The notes under the pieces: generated by a model | What the model was told of the DNA's origin: nothing | Databases searched by the model: none | The model's input: the letters and a program-made list of their open reading frames with translations, nothing else | Source: Vermamoeba vermiformis | Taxonomy: Eukaryota | Direction of reading: 5' to 3' | Length of the DNA: 64,000 bases | NCBI GenBank assembly: GCA_045837725.1 | Contig: JBEWZL010000306.1 | Span: 62,001-126,000, forward strand | Made by a program: the position numbers and the translations under genes | Shown here: in pieces, positions 2,350-45,467 of the stretch | How the letters are laid out: the number at the start of each line of letters is the position of its first letter | Numbering within the stretch: position 1 is the stretch's first letter

Positions 2350-3955
2350 TTATACAAAATCATCTGTATTGTTACTATTACTTTGGATACTAGGCTGAAC
2401 GGTACTTTGTTGTGGTTGGCTCTTATGCATGTCTTCTACGAGCGCCATAGCCTCACCAATGCTCATGTCGCTGTTTAAGTTCACCGAAGAGTTATCGTGG
2501 ATAATAATAGGCTCACTAGTCTCTATTGGCTTTGAACTTTCGTCTTCGAACTCGATCACATCCGCGTTAGTCGTTACATTTGTATCATTTTTCTTATCGT
2601 TCTCTTCCTTATTTTCAATTTCATCATGTATCTCCATATTATCGCCGTTAGTAACATGCTCGTCATTATTATTAGCATTGTTAGCGTTATTTTCAAACTC
2701 CGCTAATTCGCTCTCCAAACACCACCTCGAATCGTTCGATTTGTCCGTCGTGTGATCTTTTTCGCGCAATTCAACGCGTGTCGTTTGATTGTCTGCTGTG
2801 TCCCACGTGACCAAGTGAATGTCATTCGGTTCAATATAGCTCACAACTTCACCACCAAAGTACAAACCAACGTCTTCGAACCAAACCTGGATAGCGATAA
2901 AATTAATAAAAGAATATCTTGTACCACTTTATAGTATCTTTGAGGGTCATAATTATTTCTCCCTTTCAATAAGACGAATAATTATAGGTCTTTTTTTTTC
3001 CGAAAATAATTCGTTCAGCCATGAAGGGTTTACGACACGAAATTAAAGTTCTAATTAGAGTACGTACTTGAACCCTTTTGCCAACCAATGATCGAGCTCG
3101 TTCTCTATCTTCCTATAATATATTCATTATTAGTATCGGTATTGTAACGGAGGATTATGTCGCAAAAGTGAGGTACCTCGGTCGGTCCCGAGGGTCTTTG
3201 CGGTAATTTCTTGCCGGTGGCTGTGGGATAAGGATGTGTTTGCAACAATTGTTTGACGCGTCCTTGATCGTCGTTGATGAGCATGCCTCCTTTCCAATGT
3301 CCCAACATCGTGCCAATTTCTTTGTTTCGTTCAAACTCCATTTCAATATCTGCTTTAGTGCCCTAATTAATCAAAAATAAGTTATTATGAATCGGTAAAT
3401 AAATAAGGTGTATTTTCGGTCTTATAGGATGACATTATTACCTTCCATTTTTCGGCGATGTATTCGACTAAACTTTGACGGCCTAATAATCGCTGTGTTT
3501 TAGCTCGTAACTCTGTAGGAGCCTGAATAATCCCCGAAATTAATATTGCGGAATAAAATAAGCACTAATTATCGTTTTAGGACTTGCCCACTGAGGTAAA
3601 AACTCTTTGACAATTTTATCCCATTCTCCGATGCCAAATTTCTCGATACCACGTGCTAAATAATCTCGTTCTAGTTCTCCCCATTTTCGCATCATTATTT
3701 TGTCTTTTTTGGGCTTGAAATAACTGAATAAATCAAAAATTAATTTTTAAAATTACCAAAAATACTGTAATAATTTCGTAGCGCATTATTATATTATCCC
3801 TATAATACGTACTCTTCATTTATAGCGCCATCCTCTTTAATCATATCTTTGGGACTGAACTTCAAACGCATCTGCCTAACCCATTCTTGTCGTTCCTCTT
3901 CACTCCAATTTCTGGAGTCAGTTCCTTTAAATTTACTTAGTGAACTTTGAGCCAT
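2350..3955 (-). CDS. Homolog of p2 (AMTP2) subunit of the MTA1c/AMT1 6mA DNA methyltransferase complex, with C-terminal Tudor-like domain and acidic low-complexity tail
   Basis: Spliced product WVRQMRLKFSPKDMIKEDGAINEDYFKPKK..KWGELERDYLARGIEKFGIGEWDKI..ELRAKTQRLLGRQSLVEY matches my recollection of the ciliate p2 Myb/HTH-like protein; downstream LVGKRVQ|VWFEDVGLYFGGEVVSYIEPNDIHLVTWD is Tudor-like. Confidence 0.7.
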
Positions 3956-4088: not shown

Positions 4089-4696
4089 ATGAACACTATT
4101 ATTAGAGGATTAGCTACACAGGTTAATAAAATGGCTGATAAGGTTGAATGGGATAAAACTCGCAAGACTTTCGTATTAAACTTGCCCAACAAAGGTACAA
4201 TTATATCATATTAAAATATAATCATAATAGTATTTACAATGCGTATGATGTAATTTAGAAGCCGCAATGATTACAGAAAATCTTAAAAAATATTTGAAAT
4301 TAATTTTGACGTTTCTAGACGAGGCCATTGTTGAATATGAAGATATCGATGCTAATACGTGGAATTTTGCGCACACTTTCGTACGTAATTTCAATTATTT
4401 TTTTATTGGTGCAGCGCTTAATTTAATGCTCGGGTTTTTAGGTGCCTGAATCCGCTCGCGGAGGTGGTGTTGCAGCTAAAGTCGTCAAGGTGCGTAATCA
4501 GCAGTACTATAATTGTTTAATTTGTCGTGCGACGGAGTTTGAACGAAGATCTGATCGGGCTTACTTTTTTCAGGGCGCCTTTGATTATGCAGTCGAGAAT
4601 AACAAGAAAGTAATCCCTTCATGTTGGTACGTTAAAGACGTATTTTTGCCTAAACATCCTGAATACGCGAAGAACGTGGTCAATGCCAAGATCTAG
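4089..4696 (+). CDS. Small GNAT acetyltransferase, YjdJ/NATD1 (Acetyltransf_CG) type
   Basis: Spliced motif HTFVPESARGGGVAAKVVKGAFDYAVENNKKVIPSCWYV matches the family pattern HTxVPxxxRGxGxA...IPxCxYV; three GT-AG introns. Confidence 0.8.
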
Positions 4697-4780: not shown

Positions 4781-6406
4781 TTATTGTTTGTATTTTTCGA
4801 TCAAGGCCATCACTTCCTCTTCAGATGCGTTCACTTCTTCGGACTTTGTTTGTAGCGACGACAATTGCGTCAATTCGTCGGGCATTACCTTATTAGGAAA
4901 CTCGCCTAAGCTTTCAGTAACAACTTTAGCAAACTTTGCAGGGTGAGCCGTGCCTAAGCACACTAAAGGAGTGCCTTCAAGATGAAGTTTGGAAACCACA
5001 TCCGATCCGGCTTTAACTCCGACAGCAGTATGCGGGTCCAAAACATATTGATACTTCTCATAATACTCCTTAATAGTCTTCTTAATATCTTCTTCGGACA
5101 CACGCGACGATTTGAAGGCTTGTTGTGCTCGATCCAGAACAGATCCATCGACGGTCAGTTTTCCGGTAGTCTTGAAGACATTCATCCAATCAGATATGGT
5201 GCTCGCACTTGAGTTGGATAGGTAATATAAATATCGTTCGAAATTAGAAGAAATTTGAATGTCCATTGACGGGGTTGATGTTTCTTTGACACCTTCTTGA
5301 TGGTACTCCCCACGCTTGAAAAATCGATCCAAAATGTCGTTTTCATTTGTAGCGACTATTAATTGATCGATCGGCAGGCCCATTGCACGTGCATAGTATC
5401 CTAAAAAGGAAATAAAGTTAGCCTAATCCAAAACGATAAAAATAACTTATCTTCAATTGCTCAATTTTGCAGATATAGTTTCTATATTAGACTATATAAC
5501 TATTATACTATATATTTACCTGCTAAAATGTCGCCAAAATTGCCGGTTGGAACGGAAAAATTGACTTTTTGACCAAGCGTGATCCGGTTGTCGCGTACAA
5601 GTTGATAATAGGCATGGAAATAATATACTATTTGTGCCAATATGCGAGCCCAGTTGATTGAATTGACAGCTGAGATATTGTGACGTTGTTTGAACTCTTG
5701 TCGGCCGAAAACGGATTTGACAATATTTTGAGCATCATCAAAAGTGCTATTTTTGACTGCCAGACAGTGTACATTAGGATCCAATATCGATGTCATTTGC
5801 AGTTCTTGAATAGGACTAACTTTGCCTTGCGGGTATATGATGAAAACTTGAATATTTTTTTTTCCGCGCATCCCGTGAATTGCTGCGCTGCCAGTATCTA
5901 ACCTTGTATTAGTCTCATATAATTAATCAACAAATATCTTATTATCGGTATTTACCTCCAGAAGTTGCACCTAAGATCGTAATGTGTTGATTTTGGTTGG
6001 CTCCATCTGGCTTCGTCAAAAAATATTCAAATAAATTGCCCAAAAATTGGAGAGCGATGTCTTTGAATGAATAGGTAGGTCCATGAAACAGTTCCAATAT
6101 CCAAACTGGTCCAACCGATCGGCAAGGAGCAACAAGTTGAGCTCTGAAATTATCATGATACGAAGCGGTTATAATTCGTTGAAGATCCGCGTCTGAAACT
6201 TCTTTCGGGTCAATATACAAGCGCAAGATATTATAGCAAAGCGATTTGTAATCCAAATTGCTCCACTCGCTGATCTTTGACTGAATCTGCGGGATGTTCT
6301 CTGGAATGAACAATCCGCCATCAGGAGCGAGTCCACCCATTACTACTTGCTCGAAAGACCATCCTGAGACTTGTCCTCTAGTGCTTTTATATGTGTATGT
6401 TGACAT
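4781..6406 (-). CDS. THR4: Threonine synthase (fungal-type, PLP-dependent)
   Basis: YKSTRG, GLAPDGGLF, ELFHGPTYSFKD (PLP lysine), GATSGDTG across an intron, NSINWARILAQIVYYF, VPTGNFGDIL, PSMDIQISSNFER, TAHPAKF; 3 exons. Confidence 0.95.
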
Positions 6407-6474
6407 CTTGAGAAAATAATAAATGAAAATGTTCCGCTATCAAATTTAATTCTGATCTGCCTCGTGTGAACACA
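6407..6474. promoter_or_regulatory. Putative bidirectional promoter between threonine synthase and homoserine kinase
   Basis: Only 68 bp separate the two divergent ATGs; promoter activity is inferred from geometry. Confidence 0.55.
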
Positions 6475-7958
6475 ATGGCAAATACCTCAACTAATGAATG
6501 GCACTTTAATATACCTTGTTCCAGCGCTAATGTCGGTCCAGGGTTTGATGTACTTGGAATGGCGCTTGATCTTTACATGAGGTAAGATAAAACTCGCCCC
6601 TAAATTTTTTAAACAGTCTGAAATTATTATAAATAATAATATTGTGTCCAAAAATGTCAATTCAAAGTATGTTTAAGCGAGCAGATATTTTTTGTAGATT
6701 TTTTCAAAATACTTTTCAAGATCTAGTTGCATATGCAATACTGGCGACTGGTCTTAAGATTCACCGGTATTTTAATTAATTTTTGTATCACTTTAGGGTT
6801 ACAGTACGCAAGAGCACGCAATCAGATGACACGTTGACTTTTAAAGGCCGAGGCAGCGATGTTATCCCTTCAAACAAGACCAATCTCATCTATCAAGCAT
6901 TTATGCACGTAATTAACGAGCTAAAAGTCGAACGAAAGTTCTTTATTGATATTGAAATCAACAACGACATTCCTGTTGGAAAAGGCAAGCACGTTCTTTC
7001 TAGAGCGTAGCTCAAGTTCGAAAATTTGGAAATATTAGTCCGTTTAATAAGCTTATATTTCACCTATCATTGAATGATCGTTCGGTGTTGACTTAATTTT
7101 TCTGACGAGGGACTTTTTTGTTCAGGGCTTGGAAGCTCCGGTGTAGCAGTAGCAGCAGGTGTTATGATAGCCAATAGCTGTTACGATCTCAAATTAGACA
7201 CACAACAAATACTACAACAATGTTTGAAAATCGAAAAGCATCCGGACAACTTTACGCCTACAATCGTCGGAGGCTTTACAGCGTGCATGACATCAGAACA
7301 TGACGATAAGATTGTATATAATAAGATACCCGTTAATAGCAAGGTAACTTATAGCACTTTTAAATCGTCGCGTACTGGTTTTATTTGGCTGAAATTTTTT
7401 CTCCGAAGAAATTTGGCCCAAAATGTTTGATAGAGTCTCACGTATTATTTTTAGATTAAAGCAGTCATAGTAGTGCCTAATTTCGAACTGCCGACTTCTC
7501 AAGCTCGTCAAGTACTTCCACAACACTATTCGAGAGCAGATCTCGTTTTCAATCTCCAACGAGCCGTTACACTCATTTCAGCGTTACAAGGTACCTTATT
7601 CTTCGATATATACTGTGTTAATACCGTATGCCAGGCGATGTTACGTCTGAATCAGTTCAATTTGCTATTCGTGAAGCGATGAAGGATCGCATCCACCAGC
7701 CTTACAGATCTAAACTCGTCCCTGGGCTAACTGAATGGTAACAATATACATATGTAATCTTTTAATACTAATACTGTCCTTAGTATCCAATTAACTATGC
7801 CTGGCCTTCTCGGAGTTTGTTTAAGTGGCGCTGGGCCCAGTATTTGTGCCCTCGCTGTTGACAACTTTGACAGCATCGGCAACAAGATCAAAAGCATTCT
7901 GAAAGACAAACAAATCGACGCAGAGCACTTTGTATTGAATATTATCAAGACAGAGTAA
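6475..7958 (+). CDS. THR1: Homoserine kinase (GHMP family)
   Basis: PCSSANVGPGFDVLGMAL, IPVGKGLGSSG (across GC-AG intron 6985-7125), EKHPDN, DRIHQPYRSKLVPGL, CLSGAGPS. Confidence 0.93.
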
Positions 7959-34644: not shown

Positions 34645-37600
34645 ATGGCCACACCTGAAGCTAAGCCAACGGTTCCTACTGATTCTGGTGTTGGGGTAAG
34701 TATAGCATCTAGTTTGGCGGATAGCGATAAATATCAAAAAACAATTAATAATCGTATTCGCTATAATACCATTATAACAATAATATTTTTTATGTGGACG
34801 TATTAATTACTTGGCAGATTATTACTTTGGTAGTAACTCTGCATCGAATCAGAAATTTATTATTATTTTCAACTCAATACAATAACGTTTATTTCGCTTA
34901 TTTTATGGATAAATGTGGCTAATACAACGATAGCCGTTATTAATATTATTTTTATTTATTTTAGGCGCCCACTCCCATCCAATCCGAGGAGCAGATTCTT
35001 GATAGAATCAAAAAATGGCAACAATTAAACAGCAAACGATATGCCGAGAAAAGAAAGTTCGGCTATGTTGAACCTCAGAAAGAAGACATGCCTCCAGAGC
35101 ATCTGCGAAAAATTATCAAGGATCACGGTGACATGTCCAGCAAGAAATTCAGACGTGATAAGCGTGTATATTTGGGAGCTTTGAAATATATGCCTCACGC
35201 TATTATGAAACTCATGGAAAACATGCCAATGTAAGTATCATATCCGCGCCAATCTGATGCGTTAACCTCAAATTGTAAAATTATTTGCAGGTCATCTAAT
35301 ATTATTTTTTTCTTAGGCCTTGGGAAAATGTGCGTCACGTTAAGGTCCTTTACCACATTTCCGGCGCGATCACCTTTGTCAACGAAATCCCACGCGTCGT
35401 CGAGCCCGTGTACACCGCTCAATGGGGTACCATGTGGGTGATGATGCGAAGAGAAAAGAGAGATCGTAAGCACTTTAAGCGAATGCGCTTCCCTCCTTTT
35501 GACGACGAAGAACCTCCACTTGACTTTGGTGACAACATTTTGGACGTCGAGCCTCTCGATCCGATCCGCATTGATTTGGACGAAGAAGAAGACGCTCCCG
35601 TCCTCGAGTGGTTCTATGACCCCAAGCCACTCGTAGGCACTCCCTACGTCAATGGTTCCAGCTACAAGAAATGGCGATTGAACACTCCTATCCTCGCCAA
35701 CTTGTACCGCTTGGCCAACCAATTGATGAGCGATTTGGTCGACAAGAACTATTTCTACATGTTCGAAGAGAAGTCTTTCTTCACCGCAAAGGCACTCAAC
35801 AGCGCTATTCCTGGCGGTCCTAAATTCGAGCCTTTGTTCAGAGATTTGGAAGACAACGATGAAGATTGGAACGAGTTCAACGACATTAACAAGATCATCA
35901 TTCGTCACCAAATCAGAACCGAGTACAAGGTCGCGTTCCCGTACCTCTACAACGACAGACCCAGAAAGGTCTACTTGGCCTATTACCACCACCCACCCGT
36001 GTGCTACATTAAGGCCGACGATCCTGACTTGCCCGCGTTCTTCTTCGACCCCCTCATCAACCCCATTGTGTCAGTTAAGGGCAAGAAGAAAGCCAAGAAG
36101 GAAGAATCCGAAGAAGAGGAAGACGACTTTGAATTGCCCGAAGGAGTCAAGCCCTTGTTGAACCAAGACGACTTCGAAATGCCCAAGGGATTCAAGCCTT
36201 TGCTTCGCGAGAGTGTTCCCGACCTCTACACCGAAAACACTGCCGACGGTATTGCTCTTTACTGGGCTCCTAAGCCTTTCAACCAACGCTCGGGACGTAC
36301 TCGTCGTGTTCTCGACGTTCCTCTCGTCAAGACTTGGTACCAAGAGCGCTGCCCTGGAGACTACCCCGTCAAGGTCCGTGTCAGCTACCAAAAGCTGCTC
36401 AAGTGCTACGTCCTTAACAGACTGCACTTCCGACCTCCCAAGCCTAAGACCAAGAAGTCACTCTTCAAGGCTTTCAAGGCTACCAAGTTCTTCCAATCTA
36501 CAGAAATCGATTGGGTTGAAGCTGGTTTGCAAGTTTGCCGTCAAGGCTACAACATGTTGAACTTGCTTATTCACCGCAAGAACTTGAATTACTTGCATTT
36601 GGACTACAACTTCAACTTGAAGCCCATCAAGACTCTTACCACCAAAGAACGTAAGAAGTCTCGCTTCGGTAACGCTTTCCACTTGTTGCGAGAAATCTTG
36701 AAGTTGACTAAGCTCGTCCTCGACGCTCACGTGCAATATCGATTGGGCAACGTTGAAGCCTTCCAACTTGCGGACGCTATTCACTACACCTTCACTCACG
36801 TTGGTCACTTGACGGGCATGTACCGTTACAAGTACCGTTTGATGCGTCAAATCAGAATGTGCAAGGATCTCAAGCACTTGATCTACTACAGATTCAACAC
36901 TGGTCCAGTCGGCAAAGGTCCTGGTGTTGGTTTCTGGGCTCCTTCTTGGAGAGTCTGGCTCTTCTTCATGCGCGGCATTGTTCCGCTCTTGGAGAGATGG
37001 TTGGGCAACTTGCTTGCTCGTCAATTCGAAGGTCGTAAGTCTAAGGGCATTGCTAAGACTGTCACCAAGCAACGTGTCGAAAGTCACTACGATATCGAAC
37101 TTCGTGCCGCCGTCCTTCGTGATATCCTGGATATGATGCCCGAAGGCATTCGTCAAAACAAGGCCAAGACCATTCTGCAACACTTGAGCGAGGCTTGGAG
37201 ATGCTTCAAGGCCAACATTCCATGGAAAGTTCCTGGTTTGCCCGCTCCTGTCGAGAACATGATCTTGCGTTACGTCAAGGCCAAGGCTGACTGGTGGACG
37301 TCTGCTGCTCACTACAACAGAGAACGTGTCCGCCGTGGTGCCACCGTCGACAAGACCGTCGTCAAGAAGAACTTGGGTCGTCTGACTCGTTTGTGGTTGA
37401 AGGCTGAACAAGAGCGTCAATTCAACTACTTGAAGGACGGTCCTTACATCTCGCCCGAAGAAGCCGTTGCTATCTACACCACTACCGTGCATTGGTTGGA
37501 AAGCAGAAGATTCTCCCCGATTCCGTTCCCGCCACTCAGCTACAAGCACGACACCAAGCTCCTGATCTTGGCTCTCGAAAGATTGAAGGAAGCTTACGCC

Positions 37601-40600
37601 GTGAAGAGTCGCTTGAACCAACTTCAACGTGAAGAATTGTCGCTGATCGAACAAGCTTACGATAATCCTCACGAGACCCTCAGCAGAATCAAGCGTTTGT
37701 TGCTTACGCAAAGAACATTCAAAGAAGTTGGCATTGAATTTATGGACTTGTTCACGCACTTGATTCCTGTCTACGAAATCGAGCCGTTGGAGAAGATCAC
37801 CGATGCTTACCTCGATCAATACCTCTGGTACGAAGGTGAGAAGCGCAGACTTTTCCCGAGCTGGATCAAGCCCGCCGACAGCGAGCCTCCACCATTGTTG
37901 GTCTACAAATGGTGTCAAGGCATTAATAACTTGACGGACGTCTGGGATACCTCCAACGGAGAGTGCGTGGTGCTCATGCAATCCAAGTTCGACAAGTTGT
38001 ACGACAAGATCGACTTGACTTTCTTGAACAGACTTCTGCGCTTGATTGTCGATCACAATCTTGCTGATTACATGACCGCCAAGAACAACATCGTCATTGC
38101 CTACAAGGATATGATGCATACGAATCACTACGGTTTGATTCGCGGTCTTCAATTCGCTTCTTTCGTCGTGCAATATTATGCGCTGATTTTGGATATTTTG
38201 ATGTTGGGTCTCTCACGCGCCTCTGACTTGGCTGGTCCTGCTAACAAGCCTAACGACTTCTTGACCTTCCCTGACGTCGCTACCGAAACCAAGTCGCCAA
38301 TCAGACTCTACACCAGATACATCGACAGGTTCTGGATTTTGTTCCGCTTCACTCACGACGAGGCCAGAGACCTCATTCAACGTTACTTGACCGAGAACCC
38401 CGATCCTAACAACGAAAACATGGTTGGTTACAACAACAAGAAATGCTGGCCTCGTGACGCTCGTATGCGCCTGATGAAGCACGATGTCAACTTAGGCAGA
38501 GCCGTCTTCTGGAGCATCAAGAACAGTCTTCCTCCTTCATTGACAACTATTCAATGGGAAGACTCTTTCGTCTCCGTATACAGCAAGGATAACCCGAACT
38601 TGTTGTTCGATATGGGCGGATTTGAAGTCCGAATCTTGCCAAAGATCCGTGCCTTCAACGAAGAATTCACTTTGAAGGAAGGTGCCTGGAACTTGCAGAA
38701 CGAGAGAACCAAGGAAAGAACCGCACAAGCCTTCTTGCGCGTTGGTGACGACTCCCTACGCGTCTTCGAGAACCGTGTTCGTCAGATCTTGATGGCTTCC
38801 GGTAGCACTACCTTCACCAAGATTGCTAACAAGTGGAACACCGCTTTGATTGGTCTTATGACCTACTACCGTGAAGCCTCTGTTCACACGCCCGAGTTGC
38901 TCGATCTTCTCGTCAAGTGCGAAACCAAGATTCAGACTCGTATCAAGATCGGTTTGAACTCTAAGATGCCTAGCCGTTTCCCTCCTGTGGTCTTCTACAC
39001 TCCTAAGGAATTGGGTGGTCTTGGTATGCTTTCTATGGGTCACGTCTTGATCCCTCAATCCGATCTGAAGTACGCCAAGCTTACTGAGCGTGAGACTTCC
39101 CACTACCGCGCTGGTATGAGCCACGAAGAAGGTCAACTCATTCCCAACTTGTACCGCTACATTCAACCTTGGGAACAAGAGTTCCAAGACTCACTCCGTG
39201 TCTGGGCCGAGTACGCCATCAAGAGAGACGAGGCCATGAGCCAGAACAGACGTCTTACCTTGGAAGATTTGGAAGACTCGTGGGACAAGGGTATTCCTCG
39301 TATCAACACCTTGTTCCAGAAGGATCGTCACGTCTTGGCCTACGACAAGGGCTGGAGAGTTCGAACTGAATTCAAGGCCTACCAAGTCCTCAAGCAGAAC
39401 CCCTTCTGGTGGACTCATCAACGTCACGACGGCAAGTTGTGGAACTTGAACAACTACCGTACCGATATGATTCAAGCTCTTGGTGGTGTCGAAGGTATTC
39501 TCGAACACACTCTCTTCAAGGGCACTGGTTTCCCTACTTGGGAAGGTCTCTTCTGGGAGAAGGCCTCTGGTTTCGAAGAGTCCATGAAATACAAGAAGCT
39601 GACCAACGCCCAACGTATGGGTCTCAATCAGATTCCCAACCGTCGTTTCACTTTGTGGTGGTCTCCTACCATCAACAGAGCCAACGTCTACGTCGGTTTC
39701 CAAGTGCAGCTCGATCTTACTGGTATTTTCATGCACGGTAAAATCCCCACGTTGAAGATCTCGCTGATTCAGATCTTCCGTGCTCACTTGTGGCAGAAGA
39801 TCCACGAAAGTGTTGTCATGGATCTTTGTCAAGTCTTCGATCAAGCTTTGGACTCGTTGGAAGTCGAAACCGTTCAGAAGGAAACTATTCACCCGAGAAA
39901 GTCCTACAAGATGAACAGCTCTTGCGCCGATATCTTGCTCTTCGCTGCCTACAAGTGGCAAGTCTCGAAGCCTTCGCTCTTGACCGACACCAACGACTCG
40001 TTCGACTACGGAACTACAACTAAGTACTGGGTCGACGTTCAACTCAGATGGGGAGACTTTGATTCCCACGACATTGAACGTTACAGCAGATCTCACTTCT
40101 TGGACTACACCACGGATAACGTCTCCATCTATCCTTCACCCACTGGTTGCTTGATTGGTATCGATCTTGCCTACAACGCTCACTCTGGCTACGGTAACTG
40201 GTTCCCTGGTGCCAAGCCGTTGATCTCTCAGGCTATGTCCAAGATCATGAAGGCCAACCCTGCTCTCTACGTCTTGCGAGAACGTATCAGAAAGGCCCTT
40301 CAATTGTACTCGTCCGAGCCTACTGAACCCTACTTGAACTCTCAGAACTACGGAGAGTTGTTCAGCAACCAGATCATTTGGTTCGTCGACGACACCAACG
40401 TGTATCGTGTTACCATCCACAAGACCTTCGAAGGTAACTTGACCACTAAGCCCATCAACGGTGCCATCTTCATCTTCAACCCGAGAACTGGTCAATTGTT
40501 CTTGAAGATCATTCACACCTCCGTCTGGGCTGGTCAAAAGCGTTTGGGTCAATTGGCCAAGTGGAAGACCGCCGAAGAAGTTGCTGCTCTCATTCGCTCC

Positions 40601-42070
40601 TTGCCCGTCGAAGAACAGCCCAAGCAAATCATCGTCACCCGTAAGGGTATGTTGGATCCGCTCGAAGTCCACTTGCTCTCCTTCCCCAACATCGTCATCA
40701 AGGGAAGTGACTTGCAATTGCCGTTCCAAGCCTGCTTGAAGATCGAGAAGCTCGGTGACTTGGTACTTCGCGCCACTGAGCCTCAGATGGTCTTGTTCAA
40801 CTTGTACGACGACTGGTTGCAATCCATCTCGTCTTACACTGCCTTCTCTCGTCTCATTTTGATCTTGAGAGCTCTTCACGTCAACACTGACCGCGCGAAG
40901 GAAGTTTTGAGACCGCACAAGGACGTCATCACTGAACCTCACCACATCTGGCCCACTTTGTCCAACGACGAATGGATCAAGGTCGAAGTCGCCTTGAAGA
41001 ACTTGATCTTGGCTGACTATGGCAAGAAGAACAACGTTAACGTGACTTCATTGACTCAATCTGAAATCCGTGACATCATCTTGGGTGCTGAGATTGCTCC
41101 TCCTTCTGAGCAACGTAACGAGATTGCTGAAATTGAGAAGCAAGCCCGCGAAGCCTCTCAATTGACTGCCGTTACTACCAAGACGGTTAACAAGCACGGA
41201 GATGAGATCGTTGTTACTACCACCAGTCCTCACGAGCAGAAGATCTTCTCATCCAAGACCGACTGGAGAGTTCGCGCCATTTCTTCGACTACTCTTCACT
41301 TGCGTACTGGCCACATCTACGTCAACTCCGATGAGGTCAACGAAGAAGGCTACACCTACGTCATGCCTAAGAACATTCTCAAGAAGTTCATCACCATTTC
41401 TGATCTTCGTACTCAAGTTGCCGGTTACATGTTCGGTGTTTCTCCTCCAGGCAACAATCAAGTGAAAGAAATCCGTTGCATTGTCATGCCACCTCAATGG
41501 GGTACTCACTCCTTCGTTCAGTTGCCCAACAGCATCCCAGATCACGAGTTGTTGCGCGACCTCGAACCATTGGGCTGGTTGCACACTCAACCCTCCGAGT
41601 TGCCTCAAATGGCTCCCTCTGATGTCATCACCCACGCCAAGTTACTCTCGGAGAATACCACCTGGGATCCCAAATCTATCTGCGTCACGGTCAGCTTGCC
41701 TGGTGCTTCTGCCTCGTTGACTGCTTACCGCTTGACTCCTGGTGGCTTCGAATGGGGTCGACAGAACGTCAACAGCGAGCGCGAACAGAACTACCAAGGC
41801 TACAAACCTTCATTCTACGATCGCGCACCCTTGCTCTTGTCTGATCGTTTCTTGGGCTTCTTCATGGTTCCTGATGTCGGCAGCTGGAACTTCAACTTCA
41901 TGAGCGTCAACCACAGCGTTAACATGAAGTATAACTTGACCTTGGGCATTCCTAAAGATTTCTACAATGAGAGTCACCGTCCTGCTCATTTCTTGAACTT
42001 CTCAGAGATGGAGAGCACTGCTACCACCGAGGGAGGCGATAATGTTGATCAAGAAGATTTGTTCTCCTAA
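34645..42070 (+). CDS. PRP8: Pre-mRNA splicing factor Prp8
   Basis: Characteristic Prp8 motifs throughout ([43 protein letters not shown]); introns 34696-34964 and 35231-35316. Confidence 0.99.
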
Positions 42071-42619: not shown

Positions 42620-45467
42620 ATGTTATCCTCAGAGTACTACGCGCATAATGGTGCGTATAGAATATAATTACAGCTGAAAGATTGATCCGAATTATAATTT
42701 AAATCTTATCAACTTGAAATTTTGTTCTAATAATCCAGAATCGAACCAGTAATATGGTTACAATGATATCATAATATCGATTATTTAATTATTACATCGG
42801 AATAATACATACAGTTTTGATTTTAATTAATTTCGAATCAGATGGGTTTGGCGAACCTTTTGATAATGGAAATTTAATACACAATACGCTACTCGCCGAA
42901 GGTGTAGCAGATACAATGAATGGACAATACGCCGTAATGGACTCAGGAGGATCATACTCAGACTCGCCTGATGGTTCACCGACTGACAATGGAACACCAC
43001 CTGGTGCAGGCCTCGCAGGGTAAGTAGTCAAACAATTTCACATACACACTATAATATGATATGGCGCGAGTCAGCACGCGTTTTGTGAACTGCAAGCGCA
43101 AAAGCGCCCGACTACCAAATCTGGTTCAAACTCCGATCAACTTGTGTTTCGTATTTTGAACGCACTAAACTCATATTATCTTTACAGCTATGCCAGGTCA
43201 TCATCTCGCTCGAATAGCGGTACTTTCGAAATGACCGTAATCTTGCTGCATAAACCGCGAGGATCGAAAGGTGTTTGGGAGAAAGTTTTGGATGGAGACG
43301 TTCTGCGAGTAACTAGAGTAAGATTTTATTTTGTGCCACTCTTATTATACAAAAATAGTTCAATATTTGCAAAGCCGATTGTTTTTTTTGGTTTTGGATT
43401 CAAATCTTACTCGCGGAATTTCTATCTTTTGGTACGCTTAAAGCCGCTTTAATTATTGTCAGCGGTGAAAAATGCGCTACTAATCTATTTACAATTTACT
43501 TATTTGAGGTTTTTAACTAACGCACGTGCCTTTGTAGGAGAAAGGAAAACGACTCAAATTACAATGCAGAAGCGAATTTCCATTCGATTATAACAACGTT
43601 AGCATCTATGTCGTAGATTTGGTTAATATGGAAGTCTGCAATGACGGCGTTACGGTAGAGGTAAGTATCAGCCGGCTGAATCCATTAAAATTTTTAATTT
43701 TGTGTCAACTCCTGACAATTTACTTTGAGCCATAAGTGTTCAGTATCTTGTGCGATATTCGGGCAAATGATTTTGCGCATTTTATTTGCAAAACAATTTA
43801 AATTTTCCTTTTATGGTCAAGTTAAAAATAGGGATTTAACCTTCCGTTCATGAACAGAAAGTGACGGCTGATACCACCTCACAACCTGAGTTCGTTATTG
43901 AAATGGAGATCAAGCTCTTCGTTGCTCGCAAGCGGGTTCAACTCACCGTTCAAGCTCCCTTGCGCAACGAGGAAGGAGAAATTGCCGGTCGCACGATCCA
44001 ATTCAAAACTACTAGCAGTGGTGGTGCTATGAAGTAAGTGACTAATCAATATTAGTACCAAGTTCATAAGTCTAACGAACGCTATAGGCCAATGTCGCCA
44101 GCTAATGACAGCGAACACAACGGATCGGATCAAGATGCCTCACCGACCCATGTGCCTAACTACGGCAGAGAGATGCCTCCTCTTCCTCTGCCTCCCGCCA
44201 AGCGCAGACGTGTGGATTCACCGCCTTCTAAGACTGAACCTGACCGCGAGCCTGGTTACACAAGCGCTCACTTGAAAGAGGAGCACGCGATCTCAAACCA
44301 AGCACCTCTCCCGCCTCAAATGGCCCACCAAGCACCGCCGCAACATTATTATAACCCTCATTCAAACGCTATGGACATGAGCAGCACTAGCGTCGCTCCC
44401 ACAATACCGAATCCAGTTCCCAACCAACACGTCATGAACAGTTATAGTGCCCCCCCCTCAACCCGCTGTTAACCCTATGCACTATAGCATTGAAGCACAG
44501 CCCGTTACAGTGGTTCCTAACAGTTTGGACGTCCGCGGCGCCGTTCGAGCGAAAGCTTTCTACCAACTCAGTGACATCCGACTGAAGTTTGACGTGGAAG
44601 AAATCGTCGATGCCTTGACTATTGTGTCTAACTTGGAAGGCAAGACATACAAGTGGAAGAACAACACACCCGAAAGCGAGGAGCACGGTGGCAAGCGCGT
44701 TATTGGTTTTATTGCGCAACAAGTACAAGAGGTCCTGCCTGAAGCTGTGCGCGAAGAAGAAGACGGCTATTTGGCCGTGAACTACGAGTCTATGATTCCA
44801 GTGCTCGTAGAGGCCATGAAACAACACCTGCAAGAGTACCAGACGGACAAGATGGACTTCCAAGACCAACTGGATGATCTTCGCACTCAATTGGATGAAG
44901 GCGCGAACAAGAGCGATGATATGCACAAATTTTTGAAACACTTGCAAGAGCTGATGAAATCTAAGAAACTTACCTTCGCATCTCCAAGACCGAAAGAATC
45001 GAAGAAGAGCAAGTTAAAGCGAATGTTATATAGCAAAAAGTTCCACATTGCCGGTGGTATTGTTGCCGGCCTATTCATTGCAGTCGGCTTGGCTTTGATT
45101 ATCTTCAACAACGTCGTCAACTTGCCCGCGTTGAGTAAGTGTTGCCTACGATAAATCTTTGTCCTATGCGGTACTAACGGTGTGAAACTTAGGCGGACAA
45201 ACAGTTGCCAGTGCTATTCCTGCAGTCAACTTCCTTGGGGGTGTTTCAGCAAAGCCTCCAGCCGTAGGCAAACCTCCCACTGCCCCTTCACCAACCACCC
45301 CAACCAGCACGCCAACCACCACAGCCCCAGATGGATCTATCATAAGCGAACCAGCGTTAAACGATGTATATATTGCGTTGAATGTCGTTGGCAGTATTTT
45401 GCTGTGTCTTGGCATAGCGCTCGGTGTAACAGTAGTCGTTTTTTTCGTCAAAGCACGAAATCGTTAA
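42620..45467 (+). CDS. MYRF-like membrane-tethered protein with peptidase S74 (intramolecular chaperone autocleavage) domain; apparent frameshift at 44450-44457
   Basis: YQLSDIRLK (S-D-x-R-x-K), IGFIAQQVQEVLPEAV, LAVNYESMIPVLVEAMK, coiled coil, two TM segments; upstream NLS-like PPAKRRR and a compact N-terminal domain. Confidence 0.75.

Follow-up and report, generated by a model that had tools for sequence, protein, structure and literature searches.

The closest described relative of the gene reported here is p2/AMTP2, a small, single-purpose subunit of the ciliate MTA1c (AMT) complex, which writes N6-methyladenine (6mA) in DNA. Its solved ciliate chains (7F4L, 7F4T, 7YI8 and 8XYL) are 128–171 residues long and stop after the C-terminal domain (CTD). 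According to PMC9174199, p2 consists of an N-terminal domain (NTD), a DNA-binding domain and the CTD, and Tyr41 and Thr44 of the NTD hold two MTA1 loops, opening the S-adenosylmethionine (SAM) pocket, with the Thr44–MTA1 contact made by the main chain. We analysed a 64,000-nt stretch of Vermamoeba vermiformis DNA (GCA_045837725.1, contig JBEWZL010000306.1, positions 62,001 to 126,000 of the forward strand; hereafter the window) and rebuilt from its coordinates, and translated, a gene of six exons and five introns on the minus strand (3955..2350). The product very probably joins a p2 subunit to a Tudor-like domain, and it is called the window protein below.

Homologues of p2 beyond ciliates have already been published (PMC12019607, PMC12695648). 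In the survey of 231 eukaryotes by Romero Charria and colleagues (PMC12695648), p1 and p2 are reported to co-occur exclusively with AMT1, and 6mA is reported, across eukaryotes, to occupy linker DNA between nucleosomes marked by H3K4me3, a short way downstream of transcription start sites. The same survey describes an ichthyosporean p1 bearing a PHD finger, proposes this protein as a possible H3K4me3–6mA link, and regards as unsettled whether the DNA mark is guided by the histone mark. For the Tudor part, the closest solved domain is that of Arabidopsis RDM15 (PDS5C), in which, as reported in PMC8184781, W616, Y623 and Y641 form the cage, D643 and D645 bind two monomethylammonium protons, and E647 and Q654 hold H3R2.

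The two domains of the window protein

Residues ~17–165 of the window protein belong to the p2/AMTP2 family. Two relatives served for much of the comparison: P0001, a Trinity-assembled Vermamoeba vermiformis transcript from EukProt (249 residues, 89.8% identical to the model) that was found by searching with exon 2 alone, and its cluster mate P0152 (371 residues, 85.7% identical). A phmmer search of all PDB chains with P0001 returned Paramecium p2 first (E = 3.7e-6), followed by Tetrahymena p1 (1.1e-4) and Tetrahymena p2/AMTP2 (1.5e-4 to 2.3e-4), and telomere-factor Myb domains appeared only from 0.018; this single-sequence search did not separate p1 from Tetrahymena p2. Exhaustive phmmer against 1.84 billion representatives yielded 253 proteins with E ≤ 0.001, of which 90 reached E ≤ 1e-10; the majority were 110–250 residues long, with the matched region at ~14–116 of P0001. 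Named members of the family came from Amoebozoa (Balamuthia, Thecamoeba, Phalansterium and Clydonella), chytrids, Glomeromycotina, a green alga, Corallochytrium and Diphylleia.

Profile A1, made of 70 sequences of this p2-like family from the phmmer search, matched four distinct solved p2 sequences at E values of 4.8e-23 to 1.9e-22, from the N-terminal helix to the chain end (5–127/128 in Paramecium p2). The corresponding values were 3.7e-8 for p1, which was matched via its Myb part, 6.3e-8 for SNAPC4, the next protein outside the complex, and about 1e-4 for TRF2. A profile from the seven fused or Tudor-bearing sequences still reached p2 at 3e-14. In the AlphaFold2 (AF2) model of P0152, the mean predicted local distance difference test score (pLDDT) per 10-residue block was 93–98 over most of residues 20–160 and 79 for residues 51–60. 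Foldseek with this model returned p2 chains at all of ranks 1–9, and VIA-align against p2 gave Z 14.8 with a root-mean-square deviation (rmsd) of 1.0–1.5 Å over 89–91 residues at 28–31% identity, compared with Z 11.1 for p1 and Z 5.8 for the TRF1 Myb domain.

The window protein and the ciliate p2 chains have a common three-part build of N-terminal helix, Myb-like DNA-binding domain and C-terminal helical domain. In the profile A1 alignment, Tetrahymena p2 Tyr41 corresponds to the Tyr of a family YF motif, which is Tyr49 of the window protein, so that the Tyr touching the SAM-pocket loops of MTA1 is also present here; the Thr44 equivalent is Pro. The N-terminal helix, the Tyr loop and the CTD are kept at family level, indicating that the enzyme-touching parts of p2 are conserved, beyond the DNA-binding helices. 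Unlike the ciliate form, which is small and has no further domain, the window protein is ~210 residues longer and continues into a linker, the Tudor and an acidic tail; we count this as a point of difference, not as exclusion from the family.

The C-terminal part is predicted to form a five-strand barrel, spanning residues ~186–270. In the AF2 model of P0152, linker residues 170–177 were of low confidence, and the barrel comprised strands at 194–199, 204–214, 219–225, 231–237 and 251–253 followed by a helix at 254–269, with a pLDDT of about 80. The first non-p2 match in Foldseek was 7de9_A, the RDM15 Tudor bound to H3K4me1 (E = 2e-3, template modelling score 0.79 on the target, rmsd 1.8 Å), and the Tudors of PHF19, LBR, SGF29, Spindlin, PHF1 and SMN came next. 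VIA-align of the barrel against 7de9_A gave Z 7.8 and an rmsd of 1.5 Å over 57 of 58 residues. A second, independent model, of the P0077 fragment of another lineage (alignment A3), had the same strand order and again placed 7de9_A at the top (Z 7.0, rmsd 1.6 Å, 52 of 58 residues), the next match following at Z 5.8. By sequence, the P0152 Tudor part (83 residues) found 7de9_A at E = 6.6e-4 as the sole PDB chain below E 1, and a 7-sequence profile found it at 5.7e-5. The RDM15/PDS5C Tudor (7DE9) is the best solved match by sequence and fold, at 29–32% identity. ESM Atlas scores with the Tudor part were all below 0.9; Tudor-type families were among the matches, and we take these as a lead only.

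The window protein has an aromatic residue at each of the three cage positions. W616, Y623 and Y641 of RDM15 align to F200, F207 and W225, so that the first two are replaced by Phe and the third by Trp. Among seven sequences, F200 and W225 are invariant (7/7), and the third position is Phe in six and Ser in P0047. From this alignment, a methyl-lysine cage is plausible, and specificity for the monomethyl state is not.

Across all seven sequences, 15 columns of the Tudor region do not vary; among them are the VWF of strand 1, the WD that follows strand 3 and a loop-plus-strand motif with RWC at its end. The most conserved C-terminal stretch consists of the strand 4–5 loop and strand 5 (window 2668–2790, minus strand; residues about 230–270), where the pattern D-x-T-T/L-x-x-x-N-x-x-R-W-C-x-E is invariant or nearly so in the seven fused or Tudor-bearing relatives. 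RDM15 has no long loop before strand 5, whereas the loop of the window protein is longer and strongly conserved. The Tudor of plant MSH6 is of the same type as that of RDM15/PDS5C. A reader-type domain fused to a DNA-acting machine is common to MSH6, as described in 10.1101/2024.10.15.618488, and the window protein; the hosts differ, the window Tudor standing on a methyltransferase subunit and not on a cohesin or mismatch-repair factor.

A first-pass annotation of this stretch, made by a model from the letters and open reading frames, had called the N-terminal part a p2/AMTP2 homologue and the C-terminal part a Tudor of PDS5/MSH6 type. Both calls held up: solved p2 chains were the top matches by profile (5e-23 versus 3.7e-8 for p1) and by fold, in place of unrelated Myb/SANT proteins, and an SH3-like barrel with the RDM15 (PDS5C) Tudor as best solved match was present in two independent models. 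Taking the evidence for both domains together, we hold their identity as p2 and Tudor with high confidence.

Gene structure, transcription and recurrence of the fusion

The p2 and Tudor exons are transcribed as a single unit. The spliced coding sequence of 1128 nt is in frame and encodes 375 residues, with exons of 143, 136, 81, 186, 45 and 537 nt (the last including the stop codon) and introns of 89, 65, 79, 64 and 181 nt; all five introns have an AG acceptor, and four of the five have a GT donor, with GC in intron 2. Transcript P0001 spans exon 2 through the Tudor region and has the exon 2 to exon 6 joins as in the model, and P0152 carries all five joins, including that of exons 1 and 2. A 267-nt contig from run X8, a run whose RNA nature is a guessed label only, was placed on 3294–3176, 3111–3066 and 2884–2783 with at most two differing letters per piece and with introns 4 and 5 removed. 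The skipped ends read CT..AC, corresponding to GT..AG on the minus strand, and the absence of exactly these two introns is hard to explain other than by an RNA origin. Raw RNA reads from three runs carrying the same species label (X21–X23; 6, 7 and 24 reads placed) covered the exon bins and left bins wholly inside introns 1 and 5 empty or nearly so; these reads were mostly 90–95% alike, meaning that they came from another strain, and were too few for any splice joint to be listed.

The six-exon join proposed in the first-pass annotation was reproduced by the rebuilt model, whose translation contains both of the peptide strings quoted there, and the joined form in P0001, P0152 and the X8 contig replaces any picture of separately transcribed Tudor exons. 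Its remark that the open reading frame track misses the N-terminal domain was also borne out: single-exon Pfam searches gave weak Myb/helix-turn-helix matches to exon 2 only, and see almost nothing because the introns split the domains.

Exon 1 (3813..3955, minus strand, as are all exons of the gene; ATG at 3955–3953) encodes residues 1–48 with the p2 N-terminal helix and aligns to the NTD of solved p2 chains. Exon 2 (3588..3723; residues 48–93) holds the YFKPKK loop with Tyr49 as well as helices 1 and 2 of the Myb-like DNA-binding domain; the third helix of that domain, with the TQRLLGRQSL stretch, is encoded by exon 3 (3442..3522; residues 94–120). Intron 2 (3523..3587) between them is of GC-AG type with the donor GCAAGT, and transcript P0001 has it spliced out. 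In P0002, an 86-residue relative from a prokaryote-style gene call, this join is absent and the frame continues beyond the point matching intron 2. Both alternative GT donors for intron 2 that were tried by hand ran into stops, and neither keeps the frame there. Exon 4 (3177..3362; residues 121–182) encodes the p2 CTD, made of a long helix and a WKGG hairpin, and the start of the linker; exon 5 (3068..3112; residues 183–197) completes the linker and carries strand 1 of the Tudor.

The first part of exon 6 (2668..2886; residues 198–270) covers Tudor strands 1 (end) to 5 and the cage residues F200, F207 and W225, together with the conserved loop before strand 5 and the helix after it. The rest of exon 6 (2350..2667; residues 271–375 and the stop codon at 2350–2352) encodes an acidic, Asn/Ser-rich tail that is predicted to be disordered, with AF2 mean pLDDT values of 42–57 per 10-residue block from residue 271 onward. 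Within the tail (window 2353–2520, minus strand), a block of ~25 residues near the C-terminus is kept in the closest relatives P0004, P0006 and P0152 and is preceded by short hydrophobic runs with acidic flanks; this block may be a short linear motif.

A Tudor-profile scan of 174 collected proteins and the window model found the Tudor together with p2 sequence in the window model, P0152, P0001, P0003, P0154, P0008, P0010 and P0156, which fall into four clusters at 50% identity. Judged from these sequences, the fusion recurs in at least three further such clusters and is conserved in several lineages. P0008 and P0010 are single open frames in which the last part of the p2 CTD leads on to the Tudor with no intervening intron. 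In metagenome locus L002, residues 105–344 of P0154 lie within one tblastn segment, and locus L001 has the split layout of the window gene, with p2 exons and then the Tudor on one strand. The profile also matched Tudor-only fragments, namely exon-6 pieces of close relatives (P0004, P0158 and P0006) and sequences of more distant relatives (P0047, P0157 and P0077), as well as three unrelated multi-Tudor proteins (P0119, P0131 and P0133).

A metagenome scan with alignment A3 gave two loci only and did not bring up the exons that lie upstream of the Tudor in P0047 and P0077, both Tudor-only fragments. In word-indexed searches, the P0152 Tudor region matched P0001 alone, and alignment A2 gave nine matches under one organism name, which provides no taxonomic range. 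In a p2-domain tree of 67 rows and 130 columns, built by a quick method with the careful search unfinished, P0152 clusters with Balamuthia at support 91, the 13-row group that holds them (support 85) also takes in P0154, and 32 of 64 inner branches are open; at this resolution, one origin of the fusion and several cannot be told apart.

Proposed function and alternative readings

Combining these results, we favour a model in which a p2 subunit of the AMT1/MTA1 complex is followed by a linker, an RDM15/PDS5C-type Tudor and a disordered acidic tail, and in which the reader docks the complex on chromatin; we think this full model somewhat more probable than not. By analogy with ciliates, the p2 part would sit in an AMT1–AMT6/7–p1–p2 complex, activating cofactor binding and helping to hold DNA. 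As the ciliate biochemistry of PMC9174199 suggests, it would bind the AMT1 helical arm and the SAM-pocket loops and would line the DNA channel. The Tudor would tether the complex to nucleosomes through a methylated lysine, with H3K4 the likeliest site if the closest reader is a guide. In this way, active chromatin with H3K4 methylation would gain or keep ApT 6mA in its linkers, downstream of transcription start sites. The organism would then have AMT1-type 6mA, and the Tudor would couple the writer to a histone mark. The exclusive co-occurrence of p2 with AMT1, the 6mA in linkers of H3K4me3-marked nucleosomes and the p1-PHD protein fit such a reader-guided writer.

A more specific version, in which the Tudor reads H3K4 methylation and places the AMT1 complex on promoter-proximal nucleosomes, making this natural fusion a record of a direct histone-to-6mA targeting step, is tentative, and we consider it possible rather than probable. 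If it is true, then, taken with the ichthyosporean p1-PHD, histone readers were acquired more than once, each time independently, by accessory subunits of the 6mA writer, and the conserved overlap of 6mA and H3K4 methylation would be instructed by chromatin and not a by-product of transcription.

Several results weigh against these readings. For the barrel, Z scores of 7–8 for a 58-residue domain are middling (below 8); the Pfam family PTM_DIR17_Tudor (PF21743) matched P0001 at E = 0.034 and 14.4 bits, below its gathering score of 27.2; and the best Pfam Tudor match among seven members (E = 6.3e-5, with matches in three of the seven) was also below the gathering scores. For histone contacts, D643 of RDM15 is replaced by Thr (T227) and D645 is kept (D229), leaving the Asp pair for monomethyl-lysine specificity incomplete in an alignment that is less certain here, as loop length near these residues varies among relatives, and E647, which holds H3R2, is replaced by Gln (Q231). 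With only one of the two aspartates for monomethyl specificity kept, the lysine that is read and its methyl state may differ from those in RDM15.

The remaining points concern the 6mA context. None of the 33 scanned frames among the 64 long open frames of the window contains an MT-A70 domain, and no AMT1, AMT6/7 or p1 was seen in these parts, which hold ordinary eukaryotic genes. Literature searches for Vermamoeba with 6mA or MT-A70 found neither 6mA nor AMT1 documented for the genus. In Acanthamoeba castellanii, another amoebozoan, PMC12695648 reports that 6mA was not lowered by H3K4me3 inhibitors, indicating that a strict H3K4me3-to-6mA order is not general. All four named amoebozoan p2 homologues (Balamuthia, Thecamoeba, Phalansterium and Clydonella) went unmatched by the Tudor profile, and two of them are transcriptome open reading frames that end just past the p2 domain and are possibly cut short; this absence suggests that the reader domain is dispensable for p2 in relatives.

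The strongest alternative is that the protein is a true p2 subunit whose Tudor is not a histone reader and instead binds another subunit, a methylated non-histone protein, or DNA/RNA, or only stabilises the protein, with the conserved loop and helix around strand 5 as its working surface. Conservation does peak at that loop and at strand 5 rather than at the cage, RDM15 has no loop of such length, two RDM15 contact residues are changed, and barrels of SH3-like fold that serve other roles come close behind in score (Z 5.8–6.8 for a TraI domain and 5.7 for Sm/Hfq). Yet all three cage positions of the window protein are aromatic, with F200 and W225 invariant in seven of seven sequences, and the closest solved relative by sequence and by fold is a histone reader. 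We consider a non-reader Tudor unlikely, while giving it more weight than the alternatives that follow.

Less probable again is the co-option of a p2-like module into a chromatin factor with Myb and Tudor parts that has ceased to act alongside an adenine methyltransferase. The presence of AMT1 and 6mA in Vermamoeba vermiformis is presumed, and the gain of a new domain can accompany functional change, which would agree with such a switch; but the parts of p2 that contact MTA1 (N-terminal helix, Tyr loop and CTD) are kept at family level, and the 231-eukaryote survey (PMC12695648) reports p1 and p2 only alongside AMT1, so that we regard co-option as improbable.

Finally, an artefact of modelling or assembly that wrongly joined neighbouring p2 and Tudor genes is almost certainly not the explanation: the join does require introns 4 and 5 around an exon of just 45 nt, and the raw RNA reads are too sparse to list a joint, but the joined form occurs in Trinity transcript P0001 and in the full-length cluster member P0152, the X8 contig is without exactly introns 4 and 5, P0008 and P0010 each run from the last part of the p2 domain to the Tudor within a single open frame, and residues 105–344 of P0154 lie in one tblastn segment at locus L002.

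Parallels and neighbouring genes

A reader domain on an AMT1 partner is already a known idea, in the form of p1-PHD, and what appears to be new here is a Tudor on p2. A p2–Tudor fusion was not found in full-text literature searches. The text supplements of PMC12695648 contain no mention of Vermamoeba, Balamuthia or Tudor, and its Supplementary Fig. 5, a PDF with drawings of partner domains that lay outside the search, might show such a fusion. The ichthyosporean p1-PHD protein resembles the window protein in being an accessory subunit of the AMT1 pathway that carries a domain known to read histone-tail methylation, and differs from it in subunit (p1 versus p2), fold (PHD zinc finger versus Tudor barrel) and supergroup (Opisthokonta versus Amoebozoa). 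If both are functional, the two would be independent acquisitions, and p2-Tudor would be a second case beside p1-PHD.

The logic is the same in cytosine methylation, where histone-methyl readers such as the PWWP domain of DNMT3 and the chromodomain of plant CMT aim the methyltransferases at a chromatin state. Those are 5-methylcytosine enzymes with the reader in the catalytic polypeptide, whereas for the window gene the mark would be 6mA, with the reader on a non-catalytic subunit. A writer subunit with its own methyl-lysine reader would make the question of whether histone marks guide 6mA testable in one protein, and the fusion suggests that p2 can act as a platform for added chromatin modules.

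Upstream of the p2-Tudor gene, a small divergent gene with short introns lies at window 4100–4500 (plus strand) and starts about 180 bp from the p2-Tudor start codon; the two probably share a short bidirectional promoter region. The RNA reads of runs X21–X23 are deeper over the divergent gene than over the p2-Tudor gene. Further along, threonine synthase exons (4784–6436, minus strand) adjoin a GHMP-kinase fragment (7092–7427, plus strand), possibly a homoserine kinase, and these may form a neighbouring pair of threonine-pathway genes. PRP8 is encoded at 35300–42067 (plus strand) as one uninterrupted open frame of 2256 codons with all its Pfam domains, amid small genes that are rich in short introns. 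An open frame at 44438–45151 (plus strand) contains a Peptidase_S74 'chaperone of endosialidase' domain (Pfam E = 4.8e-17), a module characteristic of the tail fibres of phages and giant viruses and also of MYRF-type proteins; this frame stands out in an amoeba that harbours giant viruses.

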